Shown here: positions 12,816-53,000 of the stretch, one piece after another
How the letters are laid out: each line of letters begins with the position of its first letter
How positions within the stretch are numbered: the stretch's first letter is position 1
Assembly (NCBI GenBank): GCA_008632985.1
Contig: QPGO01000003.1
Coordinates: forward strand, 310,001-374,000
Reading direction: 5' to 3'
From: Psammoneis japonica
Lineage: Eukaryota
DNA: 64,000 bases
The notes under the pieces: generated by a model
The model's input: the letters and a program-made list of their open reading frames with translations, nothing else
Database searches by the model: none
Told to the model about the DNA's origin: nothing
Made by a program: the position numbers and the translations under genes

Positions 12816-12818
12816 CAT

Positions 12819-19044: not shown

Positions 19045-19482
19045 TGCAGCATGCATGCAGACAAAAGGTTATTTTGTCACGCCCTTTGTGACATTTAAAG
19101 GCTGTCACACGTCGCCGTGACACATTGACTCTCATCAGCAGCTGTGTGTTGCACTCCTCCCCATGTGTCACGCGTCCATGCGGCTCTTTGCCAACGTGTG
19201 CTGACACTGCACGGTTTTGGCGGAACAGTGTGGGTGCGCACGAAGGAACACACAGAACTGCACAGAGTTTCACGCGTTCGACAGTGATCAACGTTGCTGC
19301 AGACAACTCCCACTCAGGGTTTCGAACCCCTGGCCTCCTGCCCAATGGTTGCGATGCACCACTCCATCATGAATTCACAATGCAGCATGCATGCAGACAA
19401 AAGGTTATTTTGTCACGCCCTTTGTGACATTTAAAGGCTGCAACACGTCGCCGTGATGCATTGACTCTTGTCAGCAGCTGTG
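19045..19482. repeat. Direct repeat of about 102 bp (19045-19146 and 19381-19482) duplicating the C-terminal part of the DOT1-like ORF
   Basis: tgcagcatgcatgcagacaaaaggttattttgtcacgccc... occurs twice; differences include gacac/gatgc and ctcat/cttgt. Confidence 0.9.
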
Positions 19483-27119: not shown

Positions 27120-27256
27120 GCCACTCTGCTGTACAGCTGTTGTAGAGAGTGCTGCATTGCACGCATGTAGGCCCGCCCTACCCTCTACTCTAGAGCTAGC
27201 AGGGCCATGCATGCCGTGCTCGCTTGCGTTGCAAGCGGCGCAACGACGTGAGCCAA

Positions 27257-31100: not shown

Positions 31101-31611
31101 TTGCTCAACAAGAAGAAACTTTATTTAGAATCACCCTCTGTTTTAAAACCTTTTTTTCCATTGTTGGAAAGCTCTTTTTCTCTGCTTTTAGCAATGTGTT
31201 TTTCGCAAAGAGTTGGAAAAACACATTACCTGGCCCACCCCGGGTTTTGTCATCCGCACTTACTGTTCAGCTGGATCTTGCAGTTGACATGATGTCTGAT
31301 GACTGATGACCCAATTCAAATGACTTAACGAATTCTATGCTGTCTACAGTACAGTACATACACGACGTTGTGCATATTATCTCTTCTGGCTAATTTTAAT
31401 GTCTGTTGACCTCATTGATTTGTCCACAACCTGTGTGATGACCATTGTCAACATTTATTGCTGAAGGAAGTACCAGACTCACGCTGAAATGGACAAAAGT
31501 CTTTTTTTTGGCTTGGTGATTGGGTCGGAAGTCATGACCGCTTGCTTCTCATCGTCGATCTCACATCTCACTATTCGCTATTTTCTCATTCTCTTCTTGC
31601 ACACAAAAACA

Positions 31612-33258
31612 ATGATCATGATCATTCGCATTTTACTGTTTACGGCGTTTTTCACTGCTATTAATGGCAGAAAAACAAAAGAACCTCCTCTTCCCAGTAA
31701 AAGGAAGAAACCCAGGGCCTTTCCCCTCACAAGGGTTAGAAGTTACAGTGGCACTGAAGGTGTTGGCGGCAAAGCCCACTCCCAACTCATCCGACTGGGA
31801 GAGATTGACTATCCAGATGACGGCTTTGGCCAAATGTCTGGAGCGAAAGTCAGAGAGGGACCGAACCCACGCGTCATCAGCAATGCTGTTGCCGCACAGA
31901 GTGGCTCCAGGCCGAATGCCCGCGGTCTTTCTTCGATGGTTTGGGCCTGGGGCCAATTTATCGATCACGACATTTCTCTCACAGAACCAAATGGCATATT
32001 CGGAAAGGCGCCAATTATTATCAGCGATGAAAGCGACATTCTTTACAACGGCCCACCGCATGGCGAAATTCCATTCAATCGTTCTGAATACGACCCACTC
32101 ACGGGCACTGCTACGGTGAACCCACGACAACAGATAAATCTAATTACTTCTCGCATAGACGGCTCAGGCGTTTATGGCTCCGACAAAATGCGAGCTGATT
32201 CTCTGCGTACATTCATGGATGGTATGATGAAAATGACCCTAGTAAGTAGCAAGGGGAACAAAGTGTTGGATCTACTTCCCCGTGATGGCAGCGGCATGTT
32301 TCTTGCAGGTGACATTCGAGCCAACGAACAAGTCGGCCTCATTTCCATGCACACCCTCTTTCTACGAGAGCACAACCGCCTCTGCCGCGAGATAAAACGT
32401 TGGTTCAGGAAACTCAACCCAAACGATGAGCAGATCTACCAGCTTGCACGCAAGATCGTCGGTGCCGAGATACAAGCTATAACCTACAACGAGTTTCTTC
32501 CAGCTCTACTTGGCCGAAGGATGGCTCTGCAGGAATACAAAGGATACAATGAAACCGTGGACCCTAGCATTGCTACAGAATTCTCGACGAGCGCCTTCCG
32601 ATTTGGTCACAGCATGCTTCCGCCAGAGTTGCCGCTGTATGACAAGAGCCGCCACATTGAAAACATCAGCTTGCGTGACGCTTTCTTTAGACCAGGCTTT
32701 CTAGTAGACAGACCGATCAATGTAGATTATCTTATTGGCGGGTTCGTGAGACAGTTCGCCCAAGAGATCGATAACGAGATCATTGACGATGTTCGTAATT
32801 TCTTGTTTGGACCACCGGGACGGGGCGGTTTTGACCTCGCGGCACTCAACATTCAAAGGGGACGTGACCACGGCATTCCAACTTACAACAAAGTCCGGGC
32901 GGCGTATAATCTTCCCCCCAAAACAGAATGGAGGCATGTCACCCGCAAAGAGGCTCTTCAGAATAAACTGGCCAGCGTGTACGTGGACCCCGACGAGATG
33001 GACGCCTGGGTCGGTGGACTTTGCGAAGACCATGTACGGGGGGCTAGCGTTGGCGAACTCGTCGGTGCAGCATTAAAGGACCAATTTACCCGTATTCGTG
33101 ACGGTGATCCTTTCTTTTACTTGATTGATGAGGACCTCCAAGACTTTCGAGTGAGGAGCCAAATTGTAGATGTTGATACTGTCAAGCTCGCGGACATTAT
33201 TCGACTCAACACCCAGATTGAGAACGTCAACAGAAACGTGTTCTTTGTCAAGGATTAG
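31612..33258 (+). CDS. Animal-type heme peroxidase (peroxidase-cyclooxygenase superfamily), secreted
   Basis: WGQFIDHD (distal His), GDIRANE, AFRFGHS (proximal His), NIQRGRDHG; signal peptide MIMIIRILLFTAFFTAING. Confidence 0.92.
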   Translation: MIMIIRILLFTAFFTAINGRKTKEPPLPSKRKKPRAFPLTRVRSYSGTEGVGGKAHSQLIRLGEIDYPDDGFGQMSGAKVREGPNPRVISNAVAAQSGSRPNARGLSSMVWAWGQFIDHDISLTEPNGIFGKAPIIISDESDILYNGPPHGEIPFNRSEYDPLTGTATVNPRQQINLITSRIDGSGVYGSDKMRADSLRTFMDGMMKMTLVSSKGNKVLDLLPRDGSGMFLAGDIRANEQVGLISMHTLFLREHNRLCREIKRWFRKLNPNDEQIYQLARKIVGAEIQAITYNEFLPALLGRRMALQEYKGYNETVDPSIATEFSTSAFRFGHSMLPPELPLYDKSRHIENISLRDAFFRPGFLVDRPINVDYLIGGFVRQFAQEIDNEIIDDVRNFLFGPPGRGGFDLAALNIQRGRDHGIPTYNKVRAAYNLPPKTEWRHVTRKEALQNKLASVYVDPDEMDAWVGGLCEDHVRGASVGELVGAALKDQFTRIRDGDPFFYLIDEDLQDFRVRSQIVDVDTVKLADIIRLNTQIENVNRNVFFVKD

Positions 33259-33781: not shown

Positions 33782-35188
33782 ATGGGTTGGACGGAAGCCC
33801 TGAAGAAACGCAAAAAATCGCCTACAACGACAGTAGATCAGGCGAGGAAATGCGTTTACAATCATCGTGCAGCTCAAGTCGCCGTGACGTGGATGCAGAG
33901 GCGCATCTCGGAGAAGCAGCAAGATTCGTCCAAGTTTTCTTGCTCTGCCCAAGAATTACAGCTGTGTGAATTTAAAAAATGCGTATTAGAACAAGAATTG
34001 GAGCTCCGCAAGACGGTCCTGAACACGACGGCTGATGAAAGAGTTGAAATTCTGTTTCAAGTGGTGGACGTGAACAAGAACGGCTATGTGAGCTGCAACG
34101 AACTGAGCCTGTGCCTATTGAAGATCGATGGCGAAAAGACTCAATCTCAAGCCTTCTCAGCAGCACAACTGTCTATTTCAGCCTTTGATTCTTCTCGTGA
34201 TGGACGATTGGATTGCGGTGAATTCAAAGTGTTTCTGACCAACATTGCGAGCCAGGTTGGATGCACCGTACAAGAGCTCGCACAGTTTCTAATCTTTCGA
34301 ATTGTGACTAGCGATGATGGTCCAACTGTAGTGGCAGAGACCATTACACATGGAGATTTGACAAGCTGGGTTCAGGGTCCATACGATGATGATAAGCTTG
34401 TTCAGGCTCGAATCTTGATTTTGTTCGAGGCGTTGGACTGGGACAAGAACGGCTTGGTTTACTTTCACGAGGTTGTAAAGTGCATGTATCGTGTAGCAAA
34501 AGACATGGACAAGCAATACCGACAAATTCTCTTTTAGATCCCAGGGCGAGAAGGGCAACAAGATAGGACGCTGGATCTGAGTCAGTTTGCGTTGTTTCTC
34601 TGTAATGTGGTTGCAGCCAGTCCGGCTCATGTAGGCATACACGAAGTTTGCAACTCCATTACGTTGCTTATCTGCGGCGGTGGTAATTGCTCATGTTCGA
34701 AAGTCAACTACGAAGATATTTTCGATCAGTATGGCCTCTATGATACAAGAGAAGAAACGACTGATCAACAGACCAAAGTTCCAATATCAACGCTGGATCA
34801 AGGCCGCATGACGCGACTGTTTGACTTGTGGGATCTCAATCACAATGGCTACATTGAATTCAACGAATTCTTTCTCGGGTTGCGCAAGTTCCACGAGACA
34901 AAGGACGTGGATACTACCTTTATGGAAACCGCCACAGCCATGTCACGGTTCGACGTTAATGAAAAGAACGGAAAGCTGGACAGAATTGAATTCTCTGCAG
35001 CTCTCGCTCAATTTGCGCAAGAGGCCGCAGGTGTTGATTTGTCAGGGTTAATTGACTACATGGTTATCCATAGCGCTCTCAAGGACAACAAAGAGGCCGA
35101 ACGCGACTATGTCAGAAGCTTGCGGACTCAAACGGACATACAAAACAACCTTGGCGCGTTGTGGCCATGGGGGAGGCGGCTAGAGTAA
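33782..35188 (+). CDS. Multi-EF-hand calcium-binding protein with one in-frame TAG (34535-34537)
   Basis: EF loops DVNKNGYVSCNE, DSSRDGRLDCGE, DWDKNGLVYFHE, DLNHNGYIEFNE and DVNEKNGKLDRIE. ORFs 33773-34537 and 34592-35188 are in the same frame. Confidence 0.75.
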
Positions 35189-35897
35189 CAACGCCAGGGA
35201 AATGCACTGAGTACAGAAAGTCCATGTAGGTACTGCGACGATGCGACCGTGTTCTCACCAGTATGAAAGCATTATAAGTTTCGTGTGACACCCGGTTCCT
35301 CTCGACATCTAGCCACTGCTCTCATTCTTTCAACGTACACAATGGCTACTTCTCGTTTCAGATGCAATGTTGCAGCTCATTCATCATTTCCCTTCTTGGT
35401 ACTTTTCATCTCCTCGAGACAGCCGCGTTCTTGACTCTGTCCTTAAGCGGCTTCAAACAGAAACACAACATCGGCGACTTCTCCCCCTGGTGTAGTCCCA
35501 TCGTCGTGATCTTTGTTGATTTCTTCGTCTTGGTTGTGCCCTCTCTAGCTAATGGCTAGTTCCTGATGTAGTCACATGTGTCGTGGATTTTGGCCACTCA
35601 AGTTGTTCCGGCGGCACAAAACAGTGAGAAAATACGGAGAGAGCTCGATTCATGACGGATGAACCAATGGGTTGCTGCACACTGCGGAAACTGAGTCGAT
35701 AGAAAGTTCCATAGCAGGGTAATCATAGGTACATACTCGGAGTAAGTGACTTGTCCAATCACGGGATGAAAGAAAGAACGGCCGCAAGAAAGTACCTACT
35801 CGTAGTCGCTTGAATGTAATCCAACATACCGTAGGTTTTAGTGCTGATCTATTCTTCATCCCAACAGAATGTACCAATTCCTATACATGCTTGTACA

Positions 35898-36131
35898 AGT
35901 CACGACTCAACGTCATTCTGGTCGCATCTCACGACTACAACCCAGACTCAGATTTTCTCTTCGAAATAATTGGCTCATCACAAAATTGATTCAAACAGAA
36001 GCAACGACATTCGTCATAATTTTTAGACAACGACTTTGAACAAGCGTCTGTTTACCTCTGTTGCTGTTCACATTGCTGCCAACCTCCGAGGTCTTGTCCA
36101 TCCTACCCAGCTGTGGGACTGCATCTCGACT
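35898..36131 (+). repeat. 5' LTR (AGTC...GACT)
   Basis: 227/234 identical to 42905-43138. Confidence 0.97.
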
Positions 36132-36293
36132 GGTCACAGAGACCAATTTGCGCGTTGACGAGAGCTCCTGACCGAGTCATCGTCACGGACACTTTCGGTT
36201 TTTGATTTTGAAGCAAACCCGGGAAATGGCTGAGTCTCTCTCGCTTCTCTCGTCTTCACTCTAACAAGAACCTCTCATGCTGCACTCTTTGTC

Positions 36294-39200
36294 ATGGCTG
36301 CCATCGATCCGGCTGTTCTGGCGAAGGCATTTGCCGACGCAATGGCCGCCAACGCCGCAGCGACCGCTCCTCCGGCTCCAACCAAGCCGTTACGTGGTGG
36401 AATTCACCCAACCCACGGGGTTTACATTGGTGGTTCCAAACTCAACAACAACTGCGAACAATCCAATGACAGAACCTGCCGACTCGCCTCTCAGCGCCGT
36501 CATCCCAAGGCTCTCGACTCGATGGAACGATCTCTCCGCGATCAACAAGCTTCCGCAATGACTTCCAAGTTCAACGGTCGACTTGAGATTTTGGACGGTC
36601 CCATCAACGAGCTTGACAAGGACCATTTCGTCAAGACCATTTGAGATCTGGCAGAAGCCCACGGTCAGCAGATGTTCCACCATGTCAAGAACAGCGACGA
36701 CAAGGTTCAACATGTCTTCGACCATCTTCACGAGTTTACTGTGACCGATCTCGTGAACGAGTGCACGGTTGGGAAAGCAGCTGCCAATGACACCAAGTGC
36801 GATGAGATCGAGCTCGACGATGTCGGGCTCTCTCAACTTCTCGTTCACTCAAGAATCACTGGTGCCTTTCGCGAGAAAATCGAGACCAAGTTCAACCATC
36901 TCTCGGACTGCCAAGACTGCCCTGGATCTGTTCTGTTCATGATGGCTCTCGATGCTTGCAATGCCAGCGCTCTGACGGACATTGAGACGGCCAAGAAGCA
37001 GCTAGAAGACCTCAGTTTGGTTGGCTGTCCCGGCGAGGATTGCACGGATTTTGCTGCCGAAGCTCTTCGCATCGTAAAAATTGTGCAGACCGACCACGCG
37101 CTTCTGGCGAACACAAGCTCCAAGCCACTCCACAAGATCTCCTCTGCGTCCTCTGAATGCTTCAATCGGCGAGTCTACAACAAGCTCGACGACGTCAAGG
37201 CTGTGGAACGCAAGTGCCGCCTCAAGAATCCTGCTGACATCGTGTCCGACAGCGATTGCAAAACGCTCGGACCGGTCGGCATCATTGCATGGATTCAGGA
37301 GCAACACAACGAACTCGTGAAGGACGGGGAGTGGCCTGCGTTGGTCGCCAAGCTACCCGAGAGCAATCTTTCGACTGCGGATGACCCTGGGAAGACGAAG
37401 CACTGTTGTGGTTGCGGTCTCGAGGGGTGCACCAAGAAGACGTGCCCGAAGTGCAACGCCAAACCGCCGCGCGACGATCCTCCTCCCAATCCGCCGCCTG
37501 CAGACGACCCTTCCAAGAAGAAGAGGCGACCCATCGCTGCCTGGCGTGCTAAATTTGACGGAGAAACGAAGAAGGACAAGAATGGCAAGGAATGGAAGTG
37601 GTGTGCCACGTGCACGGCGAAGGGTGCCGACAAACCTGGAATCTGCCAGAAGCACTCTACCGCGGAACACACCGACGACCGCAGGCGCCCTCCCAAGGAG
37701 ACCCCAGCCGGGAATTTGTCTTCTGTTGCTGATCCGGACAGTGGCGTGCCCATGGGTCCGCCCGCTCAGACTGCCAAGGAACCAGAGGGAGACGAATCCG
37801 ACCCCAACGAGTTGGTTTTCACGGGAATGTGGTGCGCGGCTACGGATGCCGTCACCGACCCGGAGTTCTGTTCCGCCCCTGTTGCTGCTGCATTCATTGT
37901 TCCTCCGGCTTCTTCGGCGAGCGGGAGAGCAATGCAGTCATTGGCACTGAGGTGGTTTGCAACGAAACGAGCCCACCTGCACTCACCTCAGTCGTGGATC
38001 CAGTCGTGTCTCCCATCGTGGTTGAGACTGTCACTCCCGAAGACGCCGATGACTTCTACGAATGCTCCGACGCTTTCTCCACCTTTGAAAACGAACCACC
38101 GGCTATTGAGTTGTTTCTGGCCTCGAAGCTGTGCTCCATCAAGCATCCAGATGAGTTCTTTGACGCTCCCGCACATTTGATGGACATGCTGTCAGACGAC
38201 ACAAAGTTAGATCTCATCCTTGAACATGACGTACACTTTGAAGACGCATGCTGCGACTTGCCTCCGTGTGTCACATGTCGTGGCTTCGATTTCTACGATC
38301 CAGAGGTCCTGGATGCGGATGATTGTCACGAGGACGTCGAAGACGAGCCCACTTTGCGTCGCTCACTTTTGGGACGAGTCAAGCTGTTCACATTCTGGCT
38401 CGCCGCCATGTTTTGGGAAATGGTGCTGCATCTTTGCTTTGCTCCGATCCCTTGCATCCCTCGAGCTCTACGCCGCCAGCGCAAACTCCCAACTTTGCAC
38501 GGGTTTCCAGCCTCCTGGATGGTCCTGTCCGTTGCAGTGATGGTGTGGTCAGCAGTTTACGCCGGTCAACAGCCCGAGCATCCATTCTCGAACGTGCCAA
38601 GTCGTTTTTCGACCGCCAGCTCTCAAGTCTGCCACATTGTGGAAGAGCCAGATGACCGGATAGTGTTGGATGCGGGGTCACTGTTCGAATGTCACAGGAT
38701 CAAAGGCACGCAAGCACTCACCGAGTTTGTCGCGCGCCATCCATCACACGCACTGAGCACTCGTCTCAAGGCCTGCTGGGAGAGCCTGGAAGTCGCTGAA
38801 CGGTCGGATGCGACAGACGAATCAGCCTTCTTTGACACCTGTGAGGAACTGGAACCTCTCGACGACCAGAAGTGTTTCTTTGACGCTCTTGAGGACTTCA
38901 GCCCGGATTTCTTCCAGTTTGACGAGCTCTGTCTGCCGAATCATGTCGTGGACACTGCCCATTTTCAAGATCCTGTGGAACCATTGGAGGAAGCAAGTGT
39001 TAGACCAGTCGTCTGCAATGCCTCCACCATCCACCTGCTCACCGGACAATCACAAGCCGACCTCCTTGCATCCGATCCGCAGGCACTCATCGGTCTGTCA
39101 GACGAGGCTCTCACGGTCATCATGGATGCTGGTGCCACGTTAGCTGTTGCCCCCGACAAAGATGATTTTACGGGGCCTGTGACTGTTCCCAAGAAACCCT

Positions 39201-42200
39201 TGCAGATCAATGGGATTGCCAACGGTCTTACCATCCAGGGCACCGGTCCGGTTGCGTGGGTGTTCACAACGCTGAGTGGGGCTCCCATCCAACTGAACAC
39301 CATGGCATGCTACGTCCCTGGAGCCCGTCAGCGCCTGCCATCGCCTCAACGCCTCTTCAACGAAGAAAAGGGGGTACGTGGGAAGTGCGAGGGCGATGAA
39401 ACCACTTTCCGTTTACATGTTGACGGGACAGGCAAGTTGGTCGTGCCACATCATCCATCAAGCCACTTGCCCATTGCGTCAATGACCAAGGGCATCTCTG
39501 CCGCTCCTCAAGTGAACCTGCAGATCCTTGGCGAGGAGAATCAAAACCTCACGGCAGGCCAAAAGCTTCTTCTCGAAATGCACGCCCGTTTTGGCCATTT
39601 GAACTTTGGTCGCGTCCAAGCACTTCTCCGCGCAGTTCCGTTCCTGTCGAACCGTTTCAAGTCCGCAGCGAAGTGTGACCACCCAAGATGCGAGGCATGC
39701 GAATGTGCTAAAGGTCACAGACGCTCCCTTGGATCTGCTCACAAGTCGACAGTCCCTGAACGCGACGGGGCCCTTCGAGCTGACCATCTTTGACCGGGTC
39801 AGGCTGTCAGCGTTGATCATTTTGAGTCGCGCCTTTTAGGCCGCACCTTTGACTCACATGGCAAAGCCACGTCCAAGCAATTCAAGGGCGGTTGTGTCTT
39901 TGTCGACCACGCCTCTGGCCATGTCCAGGTCGAGCACCAACTGGGTTTCTCCGCTGTTGAGACGACACGAGCGAAGCAAGCGTTTGAGAAACATGCTTTG
40001 GACCACGGGGTCATCGTCCAAGAATTTCTTACCGACAGTGGCGCTTTCAAGGCCAACGCTTTTGTGCAACACACACGAGACCATGAACAACGTCTCCGTT
40101 TCTGTGGAACCAACGCCCATCATCAGAACGGCGTCGCAGAGCGGGGCATCCGAAGCATCTCCAACATGGTGAGAGCGATGTTGCTTCATGCATCAATCCA
40201 CTGGAAGGGGGGAATTGACAGCTCCCCATGGCCCATGGCAGTTTCTTGTGCCACGCACATCTACAATGTCACCCCAAATTCCAAAGGACATTGCCCAGCG
40301 GACATTTTCACCGGTTCGACAGTGCCAAGACATCGGTTGCGCGACATTCACACATGGGGATGTCCAGCGTACGCACTTGATCCGACCCTCGCTTCCGGGA
40401 AGAAACTCCCGCGTTGGGAGCCTCGCACTCGTCGCGCTTTGTTCGTGGGACTCAGCACCATCCATTCCAGTGAGGTTCCTTTGGTCCTCAATCTTCAAAC
40501 TGGAAGTGTTGCTCCTCAGTGTCATGTGGTCTTTGATGATCTCTTCACTGCCACACCATCAATCGAGAGGGAGACGGATCCACCTGATCACTGGGAACAC
40601 TTGTGCCTCAACCAATCGATGTGCATCCCTCTGGAGAAGGATCAAGCAGTTCATTTGCACGATGAGTGGCTTGCCCCTCCAGAGCGTCAACGTAAAGAGC
40701 GAGAACTGGCCAGAGCAACACGCATTCGCGGCCATTTTGAGCCTGCTCCATCGATTGCTGTGCCGGATTCACCCACTTCTCGCGACGACGTTGCCGATCG
40801 AGTCGCACCTGCGACTCAGCAGCCAACGCCACCAGTCCCATCTACGACTCAAACTCCTGCAGACTCTATGGACTCTGTGCCAATTCAGCCACCTGAACCT
40901 CAAGTCAGCAACGAACTTCCGCCACCCGAAGTGCCGATGGAACCAACAGCTCCTCCCCCAGTCGAGACACCTCCTGTGATGAATCCAGAGGGAGTGCCAG
41001 GGCTGCGATGGTCTTCACGGTCAACCAAGGGACAGCTCAACTCTGCCAAGTTTGTAGATGAGGTGCACTTCAGCTCCGTCAAGGAAATGCCACTGCTGAT
41101 CAGACACGAGGCTCAGCCAGCGTATCTGGCGACTCTCGAGATGGATTTGGACAGTGGCACCATCAACATCGGCGATCCACGAGCCTGCGCAGCTAGCAAG
41201 AAAACCAAGGACCCTGACATGCCTTCGTCACACAATGCTCTGAAAGGTCCGGACGCCGACGAATGGATTGAGGCGATGAAAATTGAAGTCAACGCACTCA
41301 CACATCGTCGAGCCTGGAAAGCAGTCGAGCATCAGCCGCGTGTGAATGCACTTCCAGGCACATGGGCACTGAAGCTCAAGAGACTCCCGGATGGAACCCC
41401 TCTCAAGCATGAGGCCCGATGCTGCGTCCGCGGTGATTTACAGAAAGAAGGAGTCGACCACTTCGAAACCTGCACGCCGGTTGTGCAATGGTCCAGCACC
41501 CGACTCATGCTCACTGCGGCATTAAAGGAGGGATGGACTGCACGTCAGGTGGACTGTGCCACAGCCTTTTGCCAAGCTGACATCGCCGAGGAAGTTCACA
41601 TGACACCGCTGAAGGGATTTGCGCCAAGGTCGGGACTCAACATGGTTCTCAAACTTTTGAAAGGACTGTGCGGCCTAAAACAGTCTCCCAAGGGCTTCTG
41701 CGAGAAGTTGCGAGCTGGTTTAACCGAGCGCGGATGGGTGCCTTCAGCCATAGATCCCTGTTTGTATTTCAAAGAGGGCATGATGTGTGTGGTCCACGTC
41801 GACGACACCGTTTTTGCTGGAGCTTCAGCTGAAGCTCTAGAAGCCGAAATTCGCAAGTTAGAAGTCTCCGACGACAAACATCGCCACGCATTTGAACTTA
41901 GAGACAAAGGAGAAGTCGGCAACTTTCTCGGTGTCAAGATCGAAAAGCTCTCCAAGGGTCGATTTCTACTCACTCAACCCGGTCTAATTGACAAGGTCCT
42001 GCGTGCCGCACAGATGCAGGATTGCAATGGAGCATCTGCTCCAGCTCTACCTGTGGCCATTGGTGCCGACACGGACGGCCTGCCTTTTGATGAACCCTGC
42101 GATTGTCGCTCAGTTGTTGGAATGTTGATGCACTTGGCAGCGAACAGCCGGCCAGACATTGCACATGCCACACATCAAGCAGCTCGATTCTCGTTTGCAC

Positions 42201-42883
42201 CCCGAGCGTCCCACGCTGCTGCAGTGAAGCGGATGCTCCGACACCTCAAAGCAACTGCTGCTGAAGGTCTCATTCTCAAGCCTGCGCAAGATCATCGAGT
42301 TGATTGTTACGTCGATTCTGACTTCGCGGGGTTGTTTGGTGTGGAAGATGGTCAAGACCCAGTTTCTGTCAAGTCCAGGACTGGACACCTTGTCCACTGC
42401 GCCGGCTGCCCGCTTGTCTGGGTGTCCAAGCTGCAGACTCTTGCAGCATTGTCGACTGTGGAAGCGGAACATGTCGCACTTTCTCAAGCTGTGCGCGATC
42501 TCATCCCTGTTCGTGAAGTTCTCAAGGAGCTCAACCACCACGTGTTCGGAAAGTCTGACCGCCAAAACCCCATCAAGACTCACTCCAAGGCTTTTGAGCT
42601 CACAACCCAAGGCACCGATGACTCGCCTGTAGCGCAGAATGTCCCACCTGCATCCGTTGTGTGCGAAGATAACTCCGCGTGCCTCAAGTTCGCACGCATG
42701 CCCAAGTTGTCTCCGAGAACCAAACACATCGGCATCCCGCACCACTGGTTTAGGACTAAAGTCGAACAATTGGAGATCGACATCCAACCTGTCAGCACTC
42801 TAGAGCAACTAGCCGATCAGTTCACGAAGGGACTACGGACCGATGCGTTCCGTACGGCTAGAAAGGCTCTTATGGGCTGGTAA
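36294..42883 (+). pseudogene. Copia gag-pol polyprotein with 2 TGA stops, a frameshift near 37900 and widespread Tyr>Cys/His changes
   Basis: Zn knuckle CCGCGLEGCTKKTC, protease MDAGAT, integrase HARFGH..CEAC / VSVDHFES / TDSGAF / QNGVAERGIR, RT LCGLKQSP and HVDD, RNase H YVDSDFAG / EAEH / EDNSAC / LADQFTKGL. Confidence 0.95.
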
Positions 42884-42904
42884 GCTCTCTCGGTTGAGAG
42901 GGAG

Positions 42905-43138
42905 AGTCACGACTCAACGTCATTCTGGTCGCATCTCACGACTACAACCCAGACTCAGATTTTCTCTTCGAAATAATTAGCTCATCACAAAATTGATTCA
43001 AACAGAAGCAACGACATTCGTCATAATTTTTAGACAACGACTTTGAACAAGCGTCTGTTTACCTCTGTTGCTATTCATATTGCTACCAACCTCCGAGGTC
43101 TTATCCATCCTACCCAGCTGTAGGACTGTATCTCGACT
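42905..43138 (+). repeat. 3' LTR (AGTC...GACT)
   Basis: Follows the polypurine tract and is followed by the TSD GTACA. Confidence 0.97.
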
Positions 43139-43189
43139 GTACAGATTCAACATGAATTCTTATACACTCTAGAGCTACTGTTCATCCCA

Positions 43190-44617
43190 TTATTTTAATT
43201 CAGATACATGCTTGTACAAATTCTTGACAAACACGGGTGCATCCTCATCCAAGACCAACTGCAATTCCTCCAACAAGGCCTTTGTTGGTTTCTTGTCGAC
43301 AACGTGTTGCAAAATAAATTCAATTAAAGTGGCTTCCTCTTCTCCCATGTACTCGGCAATTTGCGCCGCCACAAATGCCTTGACAGTGCCAATGTTGGAT
43401 TCCGAAATGCCCCCAAACAACACGCCCTCTGCCAATGGATCTGAAACAACAACTGGAGTAGTAGTAGCAGTAGTGAGATCTAATTTTGGCTTTTTGCGCG
43501 GTGGGCCTTCGGGTTGTTGTGGCGTTGGCGGCGGGCTGTTCATCGGCAACATCCTTGGCTTGTTCGGCTACTTCTGGATTGTCCTTGGTCATCCAGGCTG
43601 GTAGATTGGAAACACCACGTCGACCCGATTCCTTGGGCACAGTGCCGTCATTTGATGGAGCAACGGTTGTTGTTTCCGGCACTGGTGGAGGCGGCGGTGG
43701 CGGAGGCGCGTTGCGTTCTTGCTCGACTCTGGCTCGTGCGTCCTCCAAGGCCTTGTCTAATTTCTCTTTTACCAAAAGCACGCGTTGTTTCTTTTGAGAG
43801 GATTGAATGTTTTCCAAGTTTTTGCGAAAAAGTGCCACGGCTGCCAAAACAGCGGGTGCATTGAGGGGATCCTCGTCGGGGTCATAGGCACCTCCAGCAG
43901 CGGCCGCCACTTTGGTGGCGTCCAATTTCAAATCGGACGCTTCAGCAGAAGGAGCAGAGGAGGAATCCACGGTGGTTGCTACAATCCCATTGGCCGAGAT
44001 CAAACCCGGCTCGAGTTTTTCTACCAAGATTTGTAGAGTTTCATCATCAATCAGCGGTGGAGGTAGCGATACGGTGGGGTCGGTCGGAACCAAGTGTGCT
44101 CGGAGATTTGAATCAGAATTGCTTTTCGAGAGCTTTTGCAGCGCACACGTTAGTTTGAGAGCTCCATCGGGACGAGCCATGATGACTAGAGCCAATCGTG
44201 GTGATTTGTTCTTGTTGTGGTTTTCCTTATCCTTACTGTCTGCCTTTTCTGTATCGGTGCCGTTTGTTTTTTCTTTTTCTTTCTCGGCAGAAATTACAGT
44301 AACATCCTGAACAAGTCCGCACGGTTGAATCCAGTCTCGCAGCTTTTGGGTGTCCAAATGCAGCGGGATATTGATCAATAAGACCGTATTGGATGGTCGC
44401 GGTTTGCTCATAATGACGACGGGAGGTCCCATGAGTGGAGCACCGATCGGTGGCGGTGGTACTATCATGCTAGGCGGCGGAACTCCCACGGGCGGAATAC
44501 CAGCTGCTGCGCCAGGTGGAGGAATCATGGGCATGGCCACACCACTGGTGGTGGAGGAGGAGGCAGGCCTATTGGCACTGCTCCCGGTGGAGGCGGCGGT
44601 GGAGGTGGAGCCGACAT
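43190..44617 (-). CDS. Proline-rich RRM-like plus C-terminal PWI-domain RNA-processing protein, with two apparent 1-nt frameshifts
   Basis: MSAPPPPPPPP start (44617), RRM-like NTVLLINIP..., GRRGVSNLPAWMT and a PWI-like VKAFVAAQIAEYMGEEEATLIEFIL...VLDEDAPVFVKNLY. Frame changes occur at about 44545 and 43515. Confidence 0.75.
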
Positions 44618-47469
44618 GGTCAACAAGCACAGAAAATGGGCACTGTGCGGGGCGCACTCTCTCGAAAATCGGAAATCGGTTTTGTGGCCATCGGGTCTGT
44701 CCGTCCCCCATCCCATCCGACCTTAAAAACCCAAGGAGGCACCGCAGAAAAAAAAGCTCCAGCAACAGGCCAAACTCTGTCACTTTGCGAGGCACAATGG
44801 AGTGCATTGACTGTGGCTACAACAGTGTAAGGCGCTCAGGGAATGGATGCATGTGAAGAGCCAGCCAAGCACCACTTGTCGGATGTCCTCCCCAGAAAGA
44901 GCTGCGCACAGCTCATCTTCAACAAGGAGGTCAATTTTGGCAAAAAATGGTGGTGTGACTTCAACCTGACAACAGGGCACAGGACAATGAGTGGCATTTT
45001 TGAAGCACAAAGTGTGCAGCTCCTTGTGGCAGTGCAACAGCCCTGACAAGGGTTTTGATGACACACACACACACACACCCCACATGCATTTGGGAGGGGT
45101 GTGCTTCGAGGTGGGGGGTTAAATGAGAAGGCAAAGCGAGGGAATTTCTGGGTTGTCATCTGCCCCATGCATTCTTCCTCAAACAGAAACCACCCCCACA
45201 CAACTCAAAGCTGGGTGCAGCAGCAGGTGGTTGTGTTGCAATGGGTGGAAGCACTGCAAGGCAGCAGCAGGCTTGCAACATGCGTTGTCATGTGCGTTGT
45301 GTGCATGCACATCTGCACACAAAACAAATTTGTGCTCCAATCGCACGTCAATCGTGGGTTCGTACGAAGGACAGATCAATCACACAGAGTTGATCGGATG
45401 TCGAGAATCGCAAATGCGACTGTGCGATGATGTTGACATCTTGTGTGTCGGCGCCAATCGCATCCGGACAATCTGTTGTCACGATCGTATTCTCCGAAAG
45501 TCCTTTTGTCTGCAGGAGCAGTGCAAAAGGTTTAGGCTGTTGAGAACCCATTCGGAGAAATCCAAAATGATCGCGTAGAAACAACTCTCACAATTTTCAC
45601 TTTTTGAACTTAGTTCTGCTTTCGTTTGCACTCGTTCTTCGAGCACAGTGCAGGCTGCACGTGGGTTTTGAGGACACAACAATCGGAAAAGGCAGGGTGG
45701 TGAGAAAGCAGTGCCTTGAAGGACGCCTGGTGACAGCAACAACATGGAAACAAAAGAATTTTGCCTTGAGAAAAAAGCTGTTCCATTTGTCATGCAGCAC
45801 TGCAGAAAACATGCTGCACACCCATGTGCAAGAGCTGCCCTGGCACATGGCACAAGTGACAAAACAATGCATCACCAACAACTGCTCTTCACCCTTTTTT
45901 GTTCAACCAGCCAAGCAGATTTTCTCAAAGTGCACAAAACCTGTGCTGTCATCTGTTGTTGTTTTTTGTGTGTTTGACTGTGCAGACTGCCGCCTGGTCA
46001 CAGAAATGGCACACTGGGCTGCACTCATGCGCACATGAGGGGTTTGGGTTGAAAGCACTTGTGTGACATTTGTGCTGCACAGGCAGATGACACTTGTGCA
46101 CAGCAACATGCACTGCAGCTGCACCCACTCCAATGGGTGAGCTGTCAGTGCTCACAATGTGTGGCAATGACTCACTTGATGCTTGTGCGTGGCACTGCTT
46201 CCATCAGCTCCAGCTGATGACTGGATCTTCTTCTGCTGGGGGCAACAAGAAAAGAGGAGGAGCTGCAGCTTGGCAAGGGGGGTCTCCCTTGGCAATGGCA
46301 CAAGGGGCACTGATCACCAAGTGGCACAGGCTGACATCTTGTTTTAACAAGCTGTGCTTGGCACATCTCCTCTGGAAAATGCAGCAGCTCCTTTAGCCTC
46401 AAAAGGTTGGCAGTCTGTTGGAGCTCATGTCCTCAAGCCATCTTAGCCAAAAGAGCAAGTTCTGCACTCCTGTTGCTGCACCCACTTCAACAGGTGAGTT
46501 GGCCACATCCATGGTGTGCTGTGGCAATGAGCAGGTGCACCATGTCCTGCAAACACGTGAGGGTGTGGTCAGTTGGATGATGCTCATGATGAGGCAATGA
46601 GGAGGCATGAAAATCTTGTTGCATTTCAAATTCTTGCTCACAAAAGGGTTGTTCTGAATGACAGACACAGCCAACAATGAGCAGACATGACAAGCAATCA
46701 CATGGGTGGGAGGAGATTGATGAGATCTGAAAAGCTGATGGGCAATGAAATGTTGGGAAAGTCAAGCTCAAAGCCCATTCCACCACATTGATTCAACAGA
46801 TCAACTCACCTTTGTCAGAGAGAATGTGACAATGTCTTGTTGACCTGTGTGGATCTTGAGATGCATGTTGCTGGATGGTGTGTTCAGCCATTGTGTGGCC
46901 AATGGCTGCCAATGAGTGCTCAAAGCAAAGAGCCAATTTTGTAAGATCAGAGCTTTTGACTGAGCCAAACATGGCTCTGGTGTCCAGTCCACCCAAAACC
47001 TCAATTGAGGCAAGAACCTTGCAAAATGTGTGGAACTTGACAGACTGAATGGCAATGCACCAGCTCAATTTTTTTAAGGTGGCAAAAAACCTTTTTGCAA
47101 GTTTTTGGGCACTTCCATTGTTGAACTCTTCACACTTGATTGAAGAACCAGATTTCACATGAGCAGTCTCTTTGATGAGTGCAGAGTCACTGCCTCCATG
47201 CAGAACCTGCAACCCTCAATTGAGGAAATTTTTTGGCAGACTGGATGCTGGCAGGGGCAGAAAGAGCTTCTTCAGTGCAAGGTGAAGAAATCCCAAAAAG
47301 GTCATTGCTGTCAGGGCCAGCCTTTGGTGGCATCATGGTGATGACAAGCCAGCTCAAAAAAAGCCAAACTCAATTTAAAGTGCCATTGCACCTTTGCTCA
47401 GCAACGCTGGTGCCAACCAACCCACACTTCCAGTGCACCCCACCAGGGGTGCAGCAGCAGAAGTGCATG

Positions 47470-48000
47470 CAATCAGCTGGCTTTGGATTCTCCAGATGGA
47501 GGCACCCAACAGAAGCAGCTGGTGACAGTGCATGTGCCATGAAGTGCCAAGCGTTTTGCTTCCTTCAAGCTTTCCTTCAGTCTGGGCTGGACCATTGCAA
47601 TCCAGCTCTGCACTCTTGTTGTGCAGAACTCTTGATGCTCTTCTGCCAAGTCCAACAAAACCCCATGGTCTTTTGCCACATGCTCTTTTGTCATTTGTTG
47701 CATGCCACAGTCAATTGGCCTTGACCTGTTGTCTTTGGGAAGATTGAGTCAACATCATGTCTGTGCACCAAACGGTTGTGCTCCTCCCAGAGCTCCCGCC
47801 ATTGTCTCCATGTGTGAGAGCCAAATTTTGAGCTGTCCAATCTGGAGTTTGCTTGCTCTCTTCCTGATGCCAGCAGCTGGCAGAGGAGACCTGAATCACA
47901 AAGATGGTCTGATCAAAGAATGTTCAAGAGGAGAGAATGGCATCCATTGAACACCTGAATTCCATGCAGGCCTCAACTGAAATCCACAACAATGAAGTGT
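47470..48000 (-). mobile_element. 3' remnant of a non-LTR (LINE-like) retrotransposon ORF
   Basis: The minus strand reads TWRQWRELWEEHNRLVHRHD (W..W.LW..RN..VH pattern), followed by LDLAEEHQEFCTTRVQSWIAMVQP..ESLKEAK..GTCTVTSCF, resembling LINE ORF2 C-termini. Confidence 0.55.
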
Positions 48001-49091
48001 CTGTGTGCAGCACAATTGGAGTGCGCAAAGGCAGGATGAAAGTCACTCAACCACATCTTTCAGCAGTGCAGCTGCAGACAATGTGGTGATTTGCATCACC
48101 CCTGCTTCTCCTCAAACTGATGTCAGTGCTTGAACAACAGTGCAGCTCTGCAGTTGCATGAGCCACCTTTTCTCTGGCTGTGGCAGTGAACGCAGTTTGT
48201 GCGTGAAAGCTTCTGAGCAAACAAAGGCAAGCAGCTGCCTTGGCTGCAAGCAAATCTGCTGCAGTGTGATCAAAAAGTGGTGAGGAGGAAAAGATGCTGT
48301 CAGCAGTTGGCGAGAATTGCAGTGGCCGATGGCTGCCAGTGGTCTTCAGATGATGGCATGTGCAGCTCAGGTGCATGGCAAGCTCCACTTTCAAGGAGCA
48401 CGCAGCACTCTTGTTGGGTGTTTTCCTGGTCATTTGGCTGCATTCAGTCAACTTTCAGGGGCTCATCGTGCTTAAAAAAAAATGGCTGCTGAAGCCATCT
48501 GATGCATGAAAACAATCTGCTCATGTCTGAATGACAAAGGCACGCTGCTGAGTTGATCACCAATGGACAATTTTTGACTGAGCTTGGCTGCCACAACAAG
48601 TTTGCAACTGCCTCTGAGAAATGATCTGCAAAAAATTTGTCACATGGGATGATGCCTGGACTTCCAAGACAATGTGAGCAAACCCTCTTTTTGCAGGTGG
48701 AGCGCACTTTCATTGACTTCCTTTGAGCACATCATTTCATGTGCACGAAGTTTGGGCTCACACAGACCATTGAAATTTTTTAAGTCTTAAGATTGGCTGT
48801 CAGATGGTTGTCACAACTTGCATCTTTTATTGCACCACGGTGTTGCAGCAATGTGAAAAGCTCATGCACTGTGTCCCAAGAAGTGAGCTTGCAGAACGGC
48901 ATCAGTTGAGCTGTGAGCGGTTGAGCGCATGGCTGAATTCAGTCATTCTGTCTGGCTGAGCGGGTCACGATCGAGAACACCGGCACGAATGCACCGCACT
49001 GCAGACCATGGCCCACGGCAGCAAAAACTGCGGCGTTGGGTGTCGGGCGCTGCGTTTTCTGGGGTCGCATCTCGCACCTCCTTGCCTCGCC

Positions 49092-50027
49092 ATGAGTGAT
49101 CAAAAAGCTGTGTCCAAGGGCCAATCTCTTGATTGGGATGCCAAAAGCAACAAAGAGATTGACAAAGCTGATTTGGAGCTTTGCAAACAAGTTGTCAAGT
49201 GCTGCGAAATGCTTCTTCCCGACCATCTTGGGAGCGGTTTCTTTGACCAATCCTTCCTGAGCTTCCACGATGGCCCAGATTTTTCAGCAGATGGAACCTT
49301 TTGCTCAGAACCAAGGTCTTTGTCTAGTGTCCAGAACCACCACACGACAGACCCCCGTCACCTGTTGCACACTGTCGCCTGGATTCTCAGTGATGCTGGT
49401 GCAAATGCTGTGATTCGAATTTTCTGTTGTGAGCTTGCCGACCTCGCAGCAATCAAATTGCTGATCAATGCAGGACAAAAATGTGATGTGCAAGTGATCT
49501 TGCATCCCTGTGCAAACAATGAAGACGCTCTGAAGGAGTTCATGCAGATTGCAGGTGCATTGGGTTGCAATGCGCTCATGGAGAATCTCGAAATCCGATT
49601 GGCAAATGTGATGGGCACACAGTGCAAGTCGAGAAAGGTGTCCATGCACAACAAATCCATTGTCACTCACCGCTGCACAACATTTGGAAGCTGCAATTTG
49701 TCAACCTTTGCCCACATTGGAAATTGGGAGTCTCTCTGTGCCGTTGAAATGACAGAAGCACACATTGGCCACTTTGACGTGATCTGGAATGTACCCTGCA
49801 CTTGACCAATCGAACGTCATTGTCAGTTTCTTGTGAACGCCACGATGGGACCTCGAAGATGCGCTCGTGTGGCAGCATGGCAAGTGCAAGCTCAACGAGT
49901 GCAAGAACTTCATGCTCAACAAATGCAACAACGCGAACAAGATCCATTGCAACAGGGTCACCAGCCAAACGGCAATGCATGGCACTCTGTCAAGTTAATT
50001 CCTGGCAATCATGTAAACTCAACATGA
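49092..50027 (+). pseudogene. Phospholipase D superfamily (Nuc/Zucchini-like single HxK domain) protein, TpA-mutated
   Basis: IRIFCCELAD..IKLL, VQVILH, SMHNKSIVTHRCTTFGSCNLS..A..GNWES and HFDVIWN. An in-frame TGA at 49803 is followed by continuation in the same frame. No Tyr. Confidence 0.7.
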
Positions 50028-53000
50028 ACTCCATGGGGCAAGGGCACCTCTTCAGGATGTTGACACTGGGCAGTCACACACAGACCATGGCAGATCTGGT
50101 CATGGGCGCCCATGCATCTGGTCAACTTCAATGGGAGTGAGAACGTTCCAACTGAGACCGTTCGAGAGATTGAAGAGCTTCATGGCAAATCTTTGCAGGC
50201 TGAAAAGCCGCAACATTGAAAAAGGAAATGACAAACTTTGTGCGGTCAATCATTTTCTGCTCCACGCAAAACATGAAATTGAAAACATAAATTCGATTGA
50301 GTTGCCTTTGACTTTGGCGGCAATGTGAGCGGGAGATGATGAGAAGGAGTTCAACAAATGCCTGTCTCAGATGGCCACACTTGTGATTGCCACCCAACGA
50401 CATCTTGAAAAATCCAAGAAGCAAATGGGACATGGTTCTTGATTGAGGGCAATGCCAGGAGACACATCAAGGACTCTCTGCATCTTGGAGGCCGCATCAT
50501 GCCCCCCGTCTCGTGTCCCCGGTTGTCCCCACAAGATTTTTGTCAAAAATCCAGAATTTGAAATCCAGCTGCATCGGGGACACAAGGCATGCCCAGTGTG
50601 CCCTCACAGCACCTCTGCAGCCAAAATGAGATGTCAGTGCTGCCTTCAGTTGACACTGCACAGTCTCCATGAGATGCCACAAGCTGCTGCAACAACACAT
50701 CATGGGTGAATTTGTTGGTCTTGAAGTGTGGCAAAGTTCTCAGTGCCAGATCATCATGAGAATTTTTGCTCCTCTTGCTGGTCAAGAAAGTCATGACACA
50801 AGTCTCTTTTCATCCGAAGGTGCTCAGGCAATGACAGAGTGTTTTGAGATGGGACCAAGGCAATTCATTGTGTGCCATCAGCTGCATCATTTGTGCTTTG
50901 TTATCTTGGTGCCATGTGCTGGCTTTCATGGCTCAAATCGTTTGTTCATTGCACTGAGAAGAAAGCCTGAGCACCCATCATGTTAGAAGCAAAGATGCCA
51001 GAGTGGAGAAAAAGCTGCCCCATGTCACATTGAGCAGTGTTGGCTTTCTGCACTTTCAGCAGGTGTCATGCATATGTGCACAGGTGATGACACAAGGAAG
51101 AGATTTGGCTGCTTTTGTTTTGCCATGACAGCGGACTTTCTAAGATGCCAGTGCTGCTTTTTGAATGGCGTGGAGCTCTTTTCAGTGCTGCAAGCTGAGC
51201 AGAAGAGCTCTGTGGTCACAGATGCCAAGGCACCAATTTTTTCACTTGCAAGCTGGGCATCCTCTGCATGGGTGCTCTTCATCTGTTCTTGAGGATTTTC
51301 TCAATGCTGACATGGGCAACAAAGCACATCAGAGGGGGGGCTCACTTCAGGTCCTGTGCTGTTCCTGTGTTTTTTTTTTGTTCAATGAGTGCCAACCCAA
51401 GTGCAGTTTGGCCAACCCCTGCTGTTTCAATGGAACCCTGTGTGATTCTCCCACAGGACCTGCAACAACCCTGCAGGAGCTGCAGCATTCACGCAGGTGT
51501 TCTGACACTTTAATTTGGCTGATTGCCCATGGCTGAGACATGTGGTGCACCCCCAATTTTTCAATTCCTGCCTTTGGCCTCCTGCTTTTGGACTCTCATC
51601 TTGCCATTGTCTCTCCCCCTGCTCCAACCTCATGCAACAGAAACAAAAATTTCAACTTGTGCACGTCTCTTGGCACACATGCCTTGCAAAAATTTTGCTT
51701 TTCTGCTGTCTTTTTCTTGTGCAATTTTTTGTTGTTGCACAACAGCTTCCTTCTTGGACTTTCGCTGCCCCCCAAAACCAACTTTAAATCTGCTGCAGCA
51801 CACTGCATTTGATGGGTCCTCCATCTCCATTTGTTCTGTCACTGCGCAATCTTCCTTGCTCCAGAAAATTGCTTTCCATCACCCAGTTTTTCTTCACATC
51901 TTTTGGGGCTGCCCTTTTTTTGCCATTGTGAGTTTTCAAACCTGCAGCTCACTGAAAGAGCAACTGGTGCACTGCTGCTGATGCACCAGGGGTGTTGGGA
52001 CATCTTGATCACGAGTGTTGCAGCAGGGAACCCAAATCCATTGGGGAAAAGATGTTTTGTTTTGACTCCTGGCATGGCAGATGGCTCTTTGGCTTTTCAA
52101 GCAAGTCTGTGGTGTGACAGATCTGCCCCCAGTGGTGGCATCATCAGCCCCAACAAATTTGACCCTGATGCATGGTTTTGGTGTGCAGAGAGGACCAACA
52201 ATTGCGTGGCTGTGCCAGGGCTCATTCCATGGCCCCCATTTTTGTTGGGGTTGCAGCTGGTGGTTGTTTTGAAATGGTCCTGCCAGCTGATGACTGACAA
52301 TTCTGCCAGGGTTCATCCCATGCCCCCCCCACATCAGTCATCAGTGCTGGTCTCAGTGTGGATGAGACAATTGCATGGCTGCTGCTGGCGGGGCATGTCT
52401 GGTGATGGCCCCTGTTTTTTTGTCCACCCCACCCAGGCAAAAAACAAACAAATCACTCACAGTGGCTCACAACTGGCACAGCAGGAAACTCATGGCTGAT
52501 GCAACAAAGTGGTGCCTGCACGTGTGTTTCCTTTGATGGGGACAAAAAGCCATTGTCGTCAGTGCACTGTGTTGTTGGCAGCCACACTTGTGCATGGAGC
52601 GCAGTCGCCGTCAAGTCACCATCATGGTCTTTGGCAGTGATTTTCTCACCCCAAACAAGTGCCAAGAAACCTGCAAAACTGATGAACCATGATGTGGTTT
52701 GGGAGGACATGCATGGAAACACACCATGTGCAATTTTCTCCAGAAAAATGAGGCCAGGGTTGGGGTTGGGGTCACGACAGAAGCATGCATTGTGTCAAAC
52801 AGACATCACTGTATCGATTTATGTAAAGTTATCATAGACACCTGATCATCTTTAACTTTTTTCCCATCGTTCCTCGGGGGTTTTGGCGCACCGCTAACAC
52901 GGCGCCGATGCAGGACACGCACGTACGGAAAGACTCGTACAGACTTTCGTATGTAGAAACTTGGTAGTCATTTACTAAAATTCCAAAAAAAGTCGCACTT

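Follow-up and report, generated by a model that had tools for sequence, protein, structure and literature searches.

How can the two long terminal repeats (LTRs) of one retrotransposon come to differ only at sites where one of them reads TA? The question is raised by a Ty1/Copia element in Psammoneis japonica, which lies within a stretch of 64,000 nucleotides (contig QPGO01000003.1, positions 310,001–374,000 of the forward strand) that was analysed as a whole and is referred to here as the window. We propose that a DNA-level process changing TpA to TpG or CpA is likely to act on particular stretches of this DNA while sparing the adjoining host genes, and that the same process left a recent patch of changes in the 5' LTR. 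All positions are those of the window.

The carrier is a Ty1/Copia LTR retrotransposon, as follows from its LTRs, the GTACA target-site duplication, the polypurine tract and the gag–integrase–reverse transcriptase (RT) order with an RVT_2 domain. The domain scan did not pick out a protease or an RNase H domain separately. The parts of the element are given below.

35898–36132 and 42905–43139: direct repeat pair, 97% identical, bounding an element of 7.2 kb
35893–35897: left copy of the target-site duplication GTACA, 5 bp, read from the sequence; the same pentamer follows the 3' LTR
35898–36131, forward strand: 5' LTR, the TA-poor copy, 234 bp with 6 TpA and 11 CpG
35972–36122, forward strand: patch holding all seven differing sites, with TG or CA here and TA in the 3' LTR
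36132–42904, forward strand: Copia internal region with GAG-pre-integrase, SH3_retrovirus and RVT_2 domains
36294–38180, forward strand: gag-like frame with an in-frame TGA at 36642
37829–42883, forward strand: pol frame with an in-frame TGA at 39791
42896–42904, forward strand: polypurine tract GAGAGGGAG, abutting the 3' LTR on its upstream side
42905–43138, forward strand: 3' LTR, the TA-rich copy, 234 bp with 13 TpA and 11 CpG
43139–43143: right copy of the target-site duplication GTACA, 5 bp, read from the sequence

The presence of GTACA on both flanks indicates that the two LTRs stem from one insertion. A base-by-base comparison reproduces what an earlier note on this DNA had claimed for the pair: the LTRs differ at exactly seven sites within 234 bp, and at each of these the 3' LTR has TA where the 5' LTR has TG (five sites; G versus A at 35972, 36066, 36078, 36096 and 36115) or CA (two sites; C versus T at 36071 and 36122). 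All 11 CpG dinucleotides are common to both repeats, with no CG/TG or CG/CA difference between them. Six of the seven sites fall in the last 67 bp of the LTR, within 57 bp, and four of the changed sites are NTAT. The chance that seven of seven random transitions fall at TA sites is (26/234)^7 = 2e-7, or (39/234)^7 = 4e-6 under the reverse polarity. In LTR-like pairs of related Copia loci from metagenomes, 3 of the 34 differences are of the TA type, 15 are at CpG and 11 are transversions; this comparison covers 18 pairs, eight of which show no difference at all (L040, 84% identical, was dropped), and the pairs come from assemblies, so that some are merely contig-end overlaps.

The flanking DNA, which the same note had described as keeping normal TA, does so, with an observed/expected ratio (O/E) for TpA of 0.65 at 35001–36000 and 0.52 at 43001–44000. 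The internal region of the element, by comparison, contains 61 TpA, with a TpA O/E of 0.18 and a CpG O/E of 0.90; along the element, the two ratios range over 0.12–0.30 and 0.82–1.02, respectively. A 16-mer, ATACATGCTTGTACAA, is found on both sides of the element, at 35883–35898 and 43204–43219, inside a longer imperfect local repeat (…TTCATCCCA…), and from this it follows that a short duplication was already present when the Copia element entered one of its units.

Two LTRs alone do not fix the direction of change, as C>T at CpA in the 3' LTR, of the kind seen in repeat-induced point mutation (RIP), would look alike, and the coding sequence was used as an outgroup. The Copia polyprotein has 19 columns in which Tyr is present in at least 80% of 18 homologues. 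At these the element has Tyr four times, His seven times, Cys six times, and Trp and Phe once each, and the YVDD motif of the RT reads HVDD. The His and Cys replacements are exactly those given by TAY>CAY and TAY>TGY. Other well-sampled classes of conserved residue are mostly kept at 81–100%, the exceptions being Thr (52%), Ile (56%), Gln (71%) and Met (75%). Four relatives (L001, L003, L005 and L012) retain 15–19 of 17–19 conserved Tyr, and the host haem peroxidase encoded 2.6 kb upstream of the element, which served as a control, retains all eight of its own. A frame on the reverse strand elsewhere in the window (12822–14075), within DNA that is nearly free of TA, has Tyr once, His twice, Cys twice and Leu once at the six columns where its homologues share Tyr.

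The homologues used for the element are distant. The best in the protein database, among them a protein of Fragilaria crotonensis, are 55% identical, with no relative above that level. A first metagenome scan with a protein query found no relative, and a second with an alignment query returned 79 related loci, at most 56% identical and too distant for an LTR comparison.

The balance between strands is similar in the different parts of the data: His and Cys replacements number seven and six, the LTR differences comprise five A>G and two T>C, and TG and CA have equal O/E in the TA-free blocks described below. Since His is about as frequent as Cys, both DNA strands have been hit, which excludes editing of the sense RNA as well as editing confined to minus-strand cDNA. 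The coding sequence thus supports, indirectly, a direction of A:T>G:C at TpA on both strands, and we infer the same direction for the seven LTR sites.

The depletion of TpA extends well beyond the element. Over the whole window the TpA O/E is 0.28, and the ratios for TG and CA are 1.48–1.49. The map is bimodal: 30 of the 64 windows of 1 kb have a TpA O/E of 0.12 or less, many of them with 0–4 TA per kilobase, and 18 of the 64 have 0.44 or more. Across these windows the TpA ratio is inversely correlated with that of TG/CA (r = -0.85). TA-free runs reach 2582 bp, and one TA parts this run from another of 1149 bp. The TA-free blocks are also poor in CpG (O/E 0.05–0.76), whereas the Copia element combines an intermediate TpA with normal CpG, so that loss of TpA and loss of CpG are separable and in the element the former is further advanced. 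Host genes with Pfam support, encoding a GHMP kinase, a mechanosensitive channel, a delta carbonic anhydrase, the haem peroxidase and a pyridoxal phosphate (PLP) decarboxylase, sit in blocks mostly at a TpA O/E of 0.35–0.9, and non-coding DNA beside them is at 0.65–0.89. Normal TpA both in host genes and in adjoining non-coding DNA indicates a process that is local and not genome-wide; the evidence for locality covers one window of 64 kb. The principal blocks and the control gene are as follows.

1–2190: TA-free block at the start of the window
5997–21213: largest TA-free block, with per-kilobase TpA O/E of 0.00–0.12, CpG O/E of 0.09–0.76 and TG/CA O/E of ~1.6–1.9; TA-free runs of up to 2582 bp and long open frames nearly without Tyr
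21641–25320: TA-poor block comprising unit 1 of a tandem duplication and the start of unit 2
25321–25877: insertion resembling a miniature inverted-repeat transposable element (MITE), 557 bp with terminal inverted repeats and 54 TpA (O/E 0.93)
31489–33258, forward strand: host haem peroxidase gene (negative control; An_peroxidase Pfam, E 1e-136) in a block of normal TpA
45000–52811: second large TA-free block, with TpA O/E of 0.03–0.09 and CpG O/E of 0.05–0.62
59611–60806: TA-free run of 1196 bp

The amino-acid content of the encoded frames follows the same division. Tyr, His and Cys make up 2.9%, 1.9% and 1.7% of the five host genes and 0.1%, 5.3% and 5.3% of the frames in TA-free DNA; in the Copia element Tyr amounts to 0.5%. 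Open frames in the TA-free blocks reach 471 codons and exceed the length expected by chance even if TGA were the sole stop (an estimate, with ~3% TGA per codon).

The TpA that remains in TA-free windows is not a random sample of sites. TTAA accounts for 37 of 116 residual TpA there as against 36 of 778 in normal windows, a 6.8-fold difference, and ATAC, ATAT, ATAG and CTAT are nearly absent from the residual set (chi-square p = 4e-23). This tetranucleotide preference looks enzyme-like and suits an enzyme better than it suits selection. Within the TA-poor DNA there is also a tandem duplication with a unit of 1.6 kb (23382–24970 and 24971–27129). A 1.25-kb part of it shows 86 differences, with 83 transitions among them; at 13 sites unit 2 has TA and unit 1 has TG or CA, the reverse is not seen, and at 19 further double differences TG stands opposite CA. 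A model of CpG decay alone with uniform rates would predict about 1.7 such doubles, but a two-class model can fit the 19 observed, and the doubles were set aside as not decisive. Unit 2 is interrupted by the MITE-like insertion, which is absent from unit 1, has a GC content of 0.36 and is framed by terminal inverted repeats of ~12 bp (GACGTGTTCCAG) and a short duplicated target. A TA-rich MITE inside a TA-poor duplication implies that the TA-free state belongs to a sequence and its history and not to the chromosomal neighbourhood.

The history of this particular copy was considered against that of its family. In run X1 the summed contig depth is 2987–7295 on the element and 50–58 on its flanks, which corresponds to a family of ~50–130 copies at 85% likeness or more, contig depth being a rough measure. 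The family has 377 variable places, 314 of them transitions. The 40 best supported of the 377 were polarised by taking the family majority as ancestral, which gave 37 events, and the counts for the internal region that follow refer to these. CpG>TpG/CpA accounts for 20 of the 37 events, and ordinary decay of methylated CpG is therefore active in the element; both in-frame stops (36642 and 39791) are CGA>TGA, with CGA in the family majority. Two events are TA losses, and the remainder comprise one TG>TA, three adjacent CA>TG doubles, seven other transitions and four transversions. The small number of private TA losses implies that the internal depletion of TpA was inherited from the family and predates the insertion. 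The TA losses of this copy cluster towards the 5' end. The 5' LTR has lost 7 of its 13 sites and the following kilobase 2 of 8, and no loss was seen at 55 sites further into the internal region or at the 13 of the 3' LTR (5' LTR versus internal region, Fisher p = 2e-5). Such clustering has the appearance of a single brief burst or of a conversion tract.

The sequencing data comprise three runs from one sample of one study. A flank-anchored contig (run X1, record 8) matches 43109–43139 of the 3' LTR with no other letters, including TA at 43122 and 43129; its support is limited to that interval and so to two of the seven sites in the 3' LTR and none in the 5' LTR. Two contigs from other copies are placed on the TA-type LTR end. 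One of these (run X2, record 9) has a different flank and three other letters over 43055–43139; the second has a joint 43139>36139, that is, the LTR end is joined to a variant primer-binding region. No contig of run X3 was placed on the element. The two contigs from other copies weakly suggest that TA is ancestral at the seven LTR sites, and we regard the 5' LTR as quite likely to be the derived copy.

Several observations weigh against a TpA-directed process that acted on this element in place. Within the copy, TA losses (36524 and 37095) number two among the 37 polarised events and CpG losses 20. All seven LTR changes are in one repeat and none in the other (Fisher p = 0.005), a one-sidedness that independent decay of both LTRs does not predict and that calls for one local burst or for a conversion tract. 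The 14 LTR positions are absent from the 40 best-supported variable places, and the comparisons with other copies and with relatives gave no outgroup for the seven sites. Position 35937 is TA in both LTRs of the element and TG in two other contigs. The family is present in high copy number and yet carries HVDD for YVDD, which may mean that it spread when already damaged, mobilised in trans, or that its copies were hit in parallel. The TA-rich MITE-like repeat lies untouched within a TA-free block, so that either not every repeat is hit or not all are hit at once. Finally, a Pfam scan of 83 frames from the TA-free blocks returned no transposon or virus domain and only weak matches to PhyH (E 1e-6) and PLDc_2 (E 2e-5).

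Set against these results, the broader claims of the earlier note hold to differing degrees. Its context-specific A:T>G:C change at TpA, on both strands and opposite in sense to RIP, is supported by the Tyr>His/Cys replacements, the peroxidase control, the bimodal map and the tetranucleotide preference, and the windowed ratios it had put forward as a check reveal more than it saw, about half of the window being nearly TA-free. That the mutation followed integration most likely applies to the seven LTR differences, but most of the TA loss in the element was inherited from the family (internal O/E 0.18; two TA losses among the 40 best-supported differences). Likewise, TA loss outpaces CpG decay in the LTR patch (seven TA, no CpG), while inside the element the order is reversed (20 CpG versus two TA among 37). 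Read confirmation was obtained at 43122 and 43129, the other five sites in the 3' LTR and all of those in the 5' LTR being without it. The terms ‘repeat-targeted’ and ‘defence’ used in that note describe what the process may be, and we keep them conditional here.

What, then, could produce the LTR differences other than mutation in place? If the 3' part of the 5' LTR, and perhaps ~1 kb of gag beyond it, had been overwritten through gene conversion or recombination with another copy, all seven would have been imported at once. Such an event would suit a set of differences confined to one LTR, with six in so short an interval, and the copy's two internal TA losses, both of which lie no more than 1 kb from the 5' LTR. 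The family, with its 377 variable places, is abundant as well as variable, and the letter of the window at 37095 is found in about 205 of 3612 depth units, so that the state there is not private. However, no donor copy was seen, the intact GTACA duplication excludes unequal recombination between two elements (though not conversion), and differences restricted to TA would still require a TpA process. Conversion, which we consider unlikely, would thus leave the loss of TA as the ultimate source of the variation, and the differences would not be in-situ mutations that followed insertion. A reversed polarity, in which the 5' LTR is ancestral and the 3' LTR gained TA through C>T at CpA/TpG (by a RIP-like process, a cytosine deaminase or deamination of minus-strand cDNA), is compatible with two LTRs taken alone and with the TpA O/E of the 3' LTR, which at ~0.8 from its counts is unusually high for the window. 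It would also be in keeping with the state at 35937 and with the statement in PMC9998398 that some diatoms possess genes for DNMT4 enzymes, relatives of fungal RID. Yet the loss of Tyr to His and Cys in Copia and in the TA-free frame, and blocks that are free of TA and not rich in it, point the opposite way; among the 37 best-supported events, internal changes from TG/CA to TA of this kind number 0, against 1094 TG/CA sites; the contigs from other copies are placed on the TA-type LTR end; and editing restricted to the minus strand would not give a mixture of five G/A and two C/T differences. We consider reversed polarity very unlikely.

There are two further explanations. An artefact of assembly or polishing, in which reads from other members of a ~100-copy repeat ‘correct’ one of the LTRs, is suggested by the repetitiveness and variability of the family, by the presence in run X1 of only 57% of the words sampled from the 9-kb stretch, and by the listed private letters, about half of which have no contig backing the letter of the window. 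Contigs omit rare variants by construction, though, and the flank-anchored contig backs the 3' LTR letters at 43122 and 43129; an artefact would also leave the window-wide TA-free blocks and the loss of Tyr unexplained. In addition, an independent metagenome contig, L026 (1789 bp, matching over 95–1789), carries a Copia RT relic with a TpA O/E of 0.04 and a CpG O/E of 0.20, the other 78 related loci lying at 0.36–0.88 for TpA. The same syndrome is thus present in at least one other source, and we regard an artefact as highly unlikely. The final alternative requires no mutator: selection against TpA/UpA, through RNA stability or codon usage, or the import of DNA already poor in TA on arrival. 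In most genomes TpA falls short of expectation, and the median TpA O/E among the related Copia loci is 0.66; moreover, L026 keeps Tyr at 4 of 14 conserved columns although it is almost TA-free, which could reflect adaptive avoidance. But selection does not account for the loss of a catalytic Tyr (YVDD>HVDD) or of 13 among 19 conserved Tyr, TA-free runs of 1–2.6 kb lie outside recognisable genes, and the non-coding DNA beside host genes has ordinary TpA. This last possibility strikes us as extremely unlikely.

The explanation we prefer, a local DNA-level loss of TpA, would operate as follows. Adenine would be changed to guanine on either strand at TpA, the targets being particular mobile or foreign-looking stretches, and where the process runs to completion it would leave kilobase tracts without TA. 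Tyr codons would thereby be erased (TAY>CAY or TGY), along with signals that contain TA. Because TA>TG/CA makes no stop codon and destroys TAA and TAG, genes that have died in this way stay open. The Copia family would have been exposed for a long time, giving the low internal TpA and the replacement of most Tyr by His or Cys, and the seven LTR differences would most likely represent one recent short patch laid down in the 5' LTR after insertion, with the ancestral TA kept in the 3' LTR. The targets may be chosen for their foreignness or for their repetition, and the process may serve in defence. The chemistry is most likely that of an ADAT2/TadA-like enzyme which deaminates adenine in DNA to hypoxanthine, as has been proposed for Bigelowiella natans. 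An adenine deaminase acting on plus-strand strong-stop DNA during reverse transcription was also considered; it would leave its mark on the 5' LTR alone and fits the five A>G differences but not the two T>C or the two changes in gag, and is retained as a minor possibility only.

The TA-free blocks may be of foreign origin. The frame at 12822–14075 on the reverse strand has 17 distant homologues in a HMMER representative search (best E 1e-12). Homologues of ~1060–1310 amino acids match it by their C-terminal part, and two of them are on metagenome contigs of ~7 kb. Tyr makes up 0.2% of the frame versus 3.0–4.5% of seven aligned homologues. No Pfam domain was found in the eight homologues scanned, and the six that were looked up are named just ‘hypothetical protein’. 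An Atlas search with two frames from TA-free blocks gave no usable match, and a word-based search found no homologue of the reverse-strand frame at 15007–16203. The region 12822–20065 on the reverse strand is a chain of long frames, nearly free of Tyr and parted by single in-frame TGA codons (for example 12822–14075, 14079–14606 and 14610–15422), which may represent an undescribed mobile element or virus gene. A direct repeat of 109 nt (19045–19153 and 19381–19489, 92% identical) lies in a Tyr-free frame and encodes a repeated peptide. At the edges of TA-free blocks, 50 kb apart, there is an inverted repeat of 114 nt (2925–3038 and 52899–53012, 84% complementary); transversions make up half of its 18 differences, in contrast to the other repeats in the window.

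The peroxidase gene that served as control (31489–33258) encodes a haem peroxidase of the animal type. Its best named matches are from Planctomycetes and a few diatoms (Epithemia and Seminavis), no public protein is above 69% identity, and the distribution suggests an old bacterial transfer into diatoms.

If the proposed process is real, TpA hypermutation is not peculiar to one chlorarachniophyte and would also shape a large share of the genome in another algal lineage, one that is ecologically dominant; on the fuller proposal given further below, immune editing of this kind would be ancient or convergent across the supergroup of stramenopiles, alveolates and rhizarians (SAR). It would give diatom genomics a marker of silenced foreign DNA, in the form of open frames that lack Tyr together with much TG/CA and a TpA O/E close to zero, by which old foreign DNA could be recognised in such genomes, and it would explain why such frames lack homologues. 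Gene predictors would have to be used with caution, as dead genes would resemble long intact open reading frames. The LTR pair, the ~100-copy Copia family and the sparing of TTAA offer concrete starting points from which the enzyme could be sought and bursts dated.

Among known editing systems, RNA editing of the ADAR type changes A to G and prefers U or T 5' of the edited A. ADARs are not known outside animals. RNA editing marks the sense strand alone, whereas both strands are affected here, and because the two LTRs are copied from one template it could not make them differ. APOBEC3 enzymes deaminate cytosine in retroelement cDNA and leave strand-biased G>A changes on the plus strand. The present case resembles theirs as an editing attack on retroelements that could mark one LTR through single-stranded intermediates, and differs in that the polarised changes are A>G and T>C on both strands.

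Diatom transposable elements are methylated, according to PMC9998398, and decay of methylated CpG is likewise present in this element, but it accounts for none of the seven LTR differences. The likeness to fungal RIP, which is summarised in PMC9998398 and in the preprint of Mettrop et al. cited below, lies in context-specific transitions within particular DNA, in ruined mobile elements and in a dinucleotide footprint. The chemistry is the opposite: here the change is A:T>G:C and TpA is lost, whereas in RIP it is C:G>T:A and TpA is gained; here no stops are made, frames stay open and GC is not lowered. RIP acts on duplicated DNA, and in the window the 1.6-kb tandem duplication and the high-copy Copia element are TA-poor while the MITE-like repeat is spared. 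An enzyme resembling a cytosine methyltransferase is unlikely for a change at adenine.

We found no report of TpA hypermutation in diatoms in the literature on diatom TpA, RIP, hypermutation and mutation spectra. The available text of Maumus et al. 2009 (PMC2806351) does not mention RIP, TpA or deamination, and that of PMC4504042 mentions TA solely as nucleosome-excluding. The earlier note had known of no description of such a pathway in diatoms, and for diatoms this agrees with our search; the signature itself has, however, been reported in the chlorarachniophyte B. natans (Mettrop et al., bioRxiv 10.64898/2026.01.13.699255). According to that preprint, 231 of 302 nuclear mutations in 15 mutation-accumulation lines fell in two integrated viral regions, and 230 of these 231 were A>G or T>C, all on TpA. 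These mutations arose at ~6e-7 per site per generation, ~1000-fold over background and in some lines only. The footprint in the ~95-Mb genome comprises 124 clusters of windows in which TpA is scarce and CpA+TpG abundant, with a Rho TpA of 0.45 in a region derived from nucleocytoplasmic large DNA viruses (NCLDV), and genes low in TpA are enriched in RT and DDE-endonuclease domains. The authors propose an ADAT2-like DNA adenine deaminase.

The process in the window shares with that described in the preprint an exclusive A>G/T>C change at TpA, which becomes TpG or CpA on either strand, and a restriction to particular sequences with the rest remaining ordinary; the episodic character reported for B. 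natans also fits the single short patch in the 5' LTR. The two cases differ in several respects. New mutations were measured directly in B. natans, whereas here the process is known from sequence patterns alone. TTAA is spared here, a feature that goes unmentioned in the abstract, Results and Discussion of the preprint. The host is diatom-like, a stramenopile, the affected DNA includes a high-copy LTR retrotransposon, and the extent is far greater: 33 of the 64 windows pass the thresholds of the preprint, in runs of up to 15 and many of them at 0.00–0.06. We place at about even the fuller proposal that TpA-specific DNA adenine editing, so far measured in B. natans only, is also present in diatoms in a more intense and bursty form, with TTAA spared and ATAY the most sensitive. 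On this proposal it would have stripped almost all TpA from roughly half of the window, and one of its bursts may be recorded in the 5' LTR and first kilobase of this young Copia copy. Taken as a whole, the process is best filed as a further case of B. natans-type hypermutation, in a second major algal lineage and at a much higher intensity.

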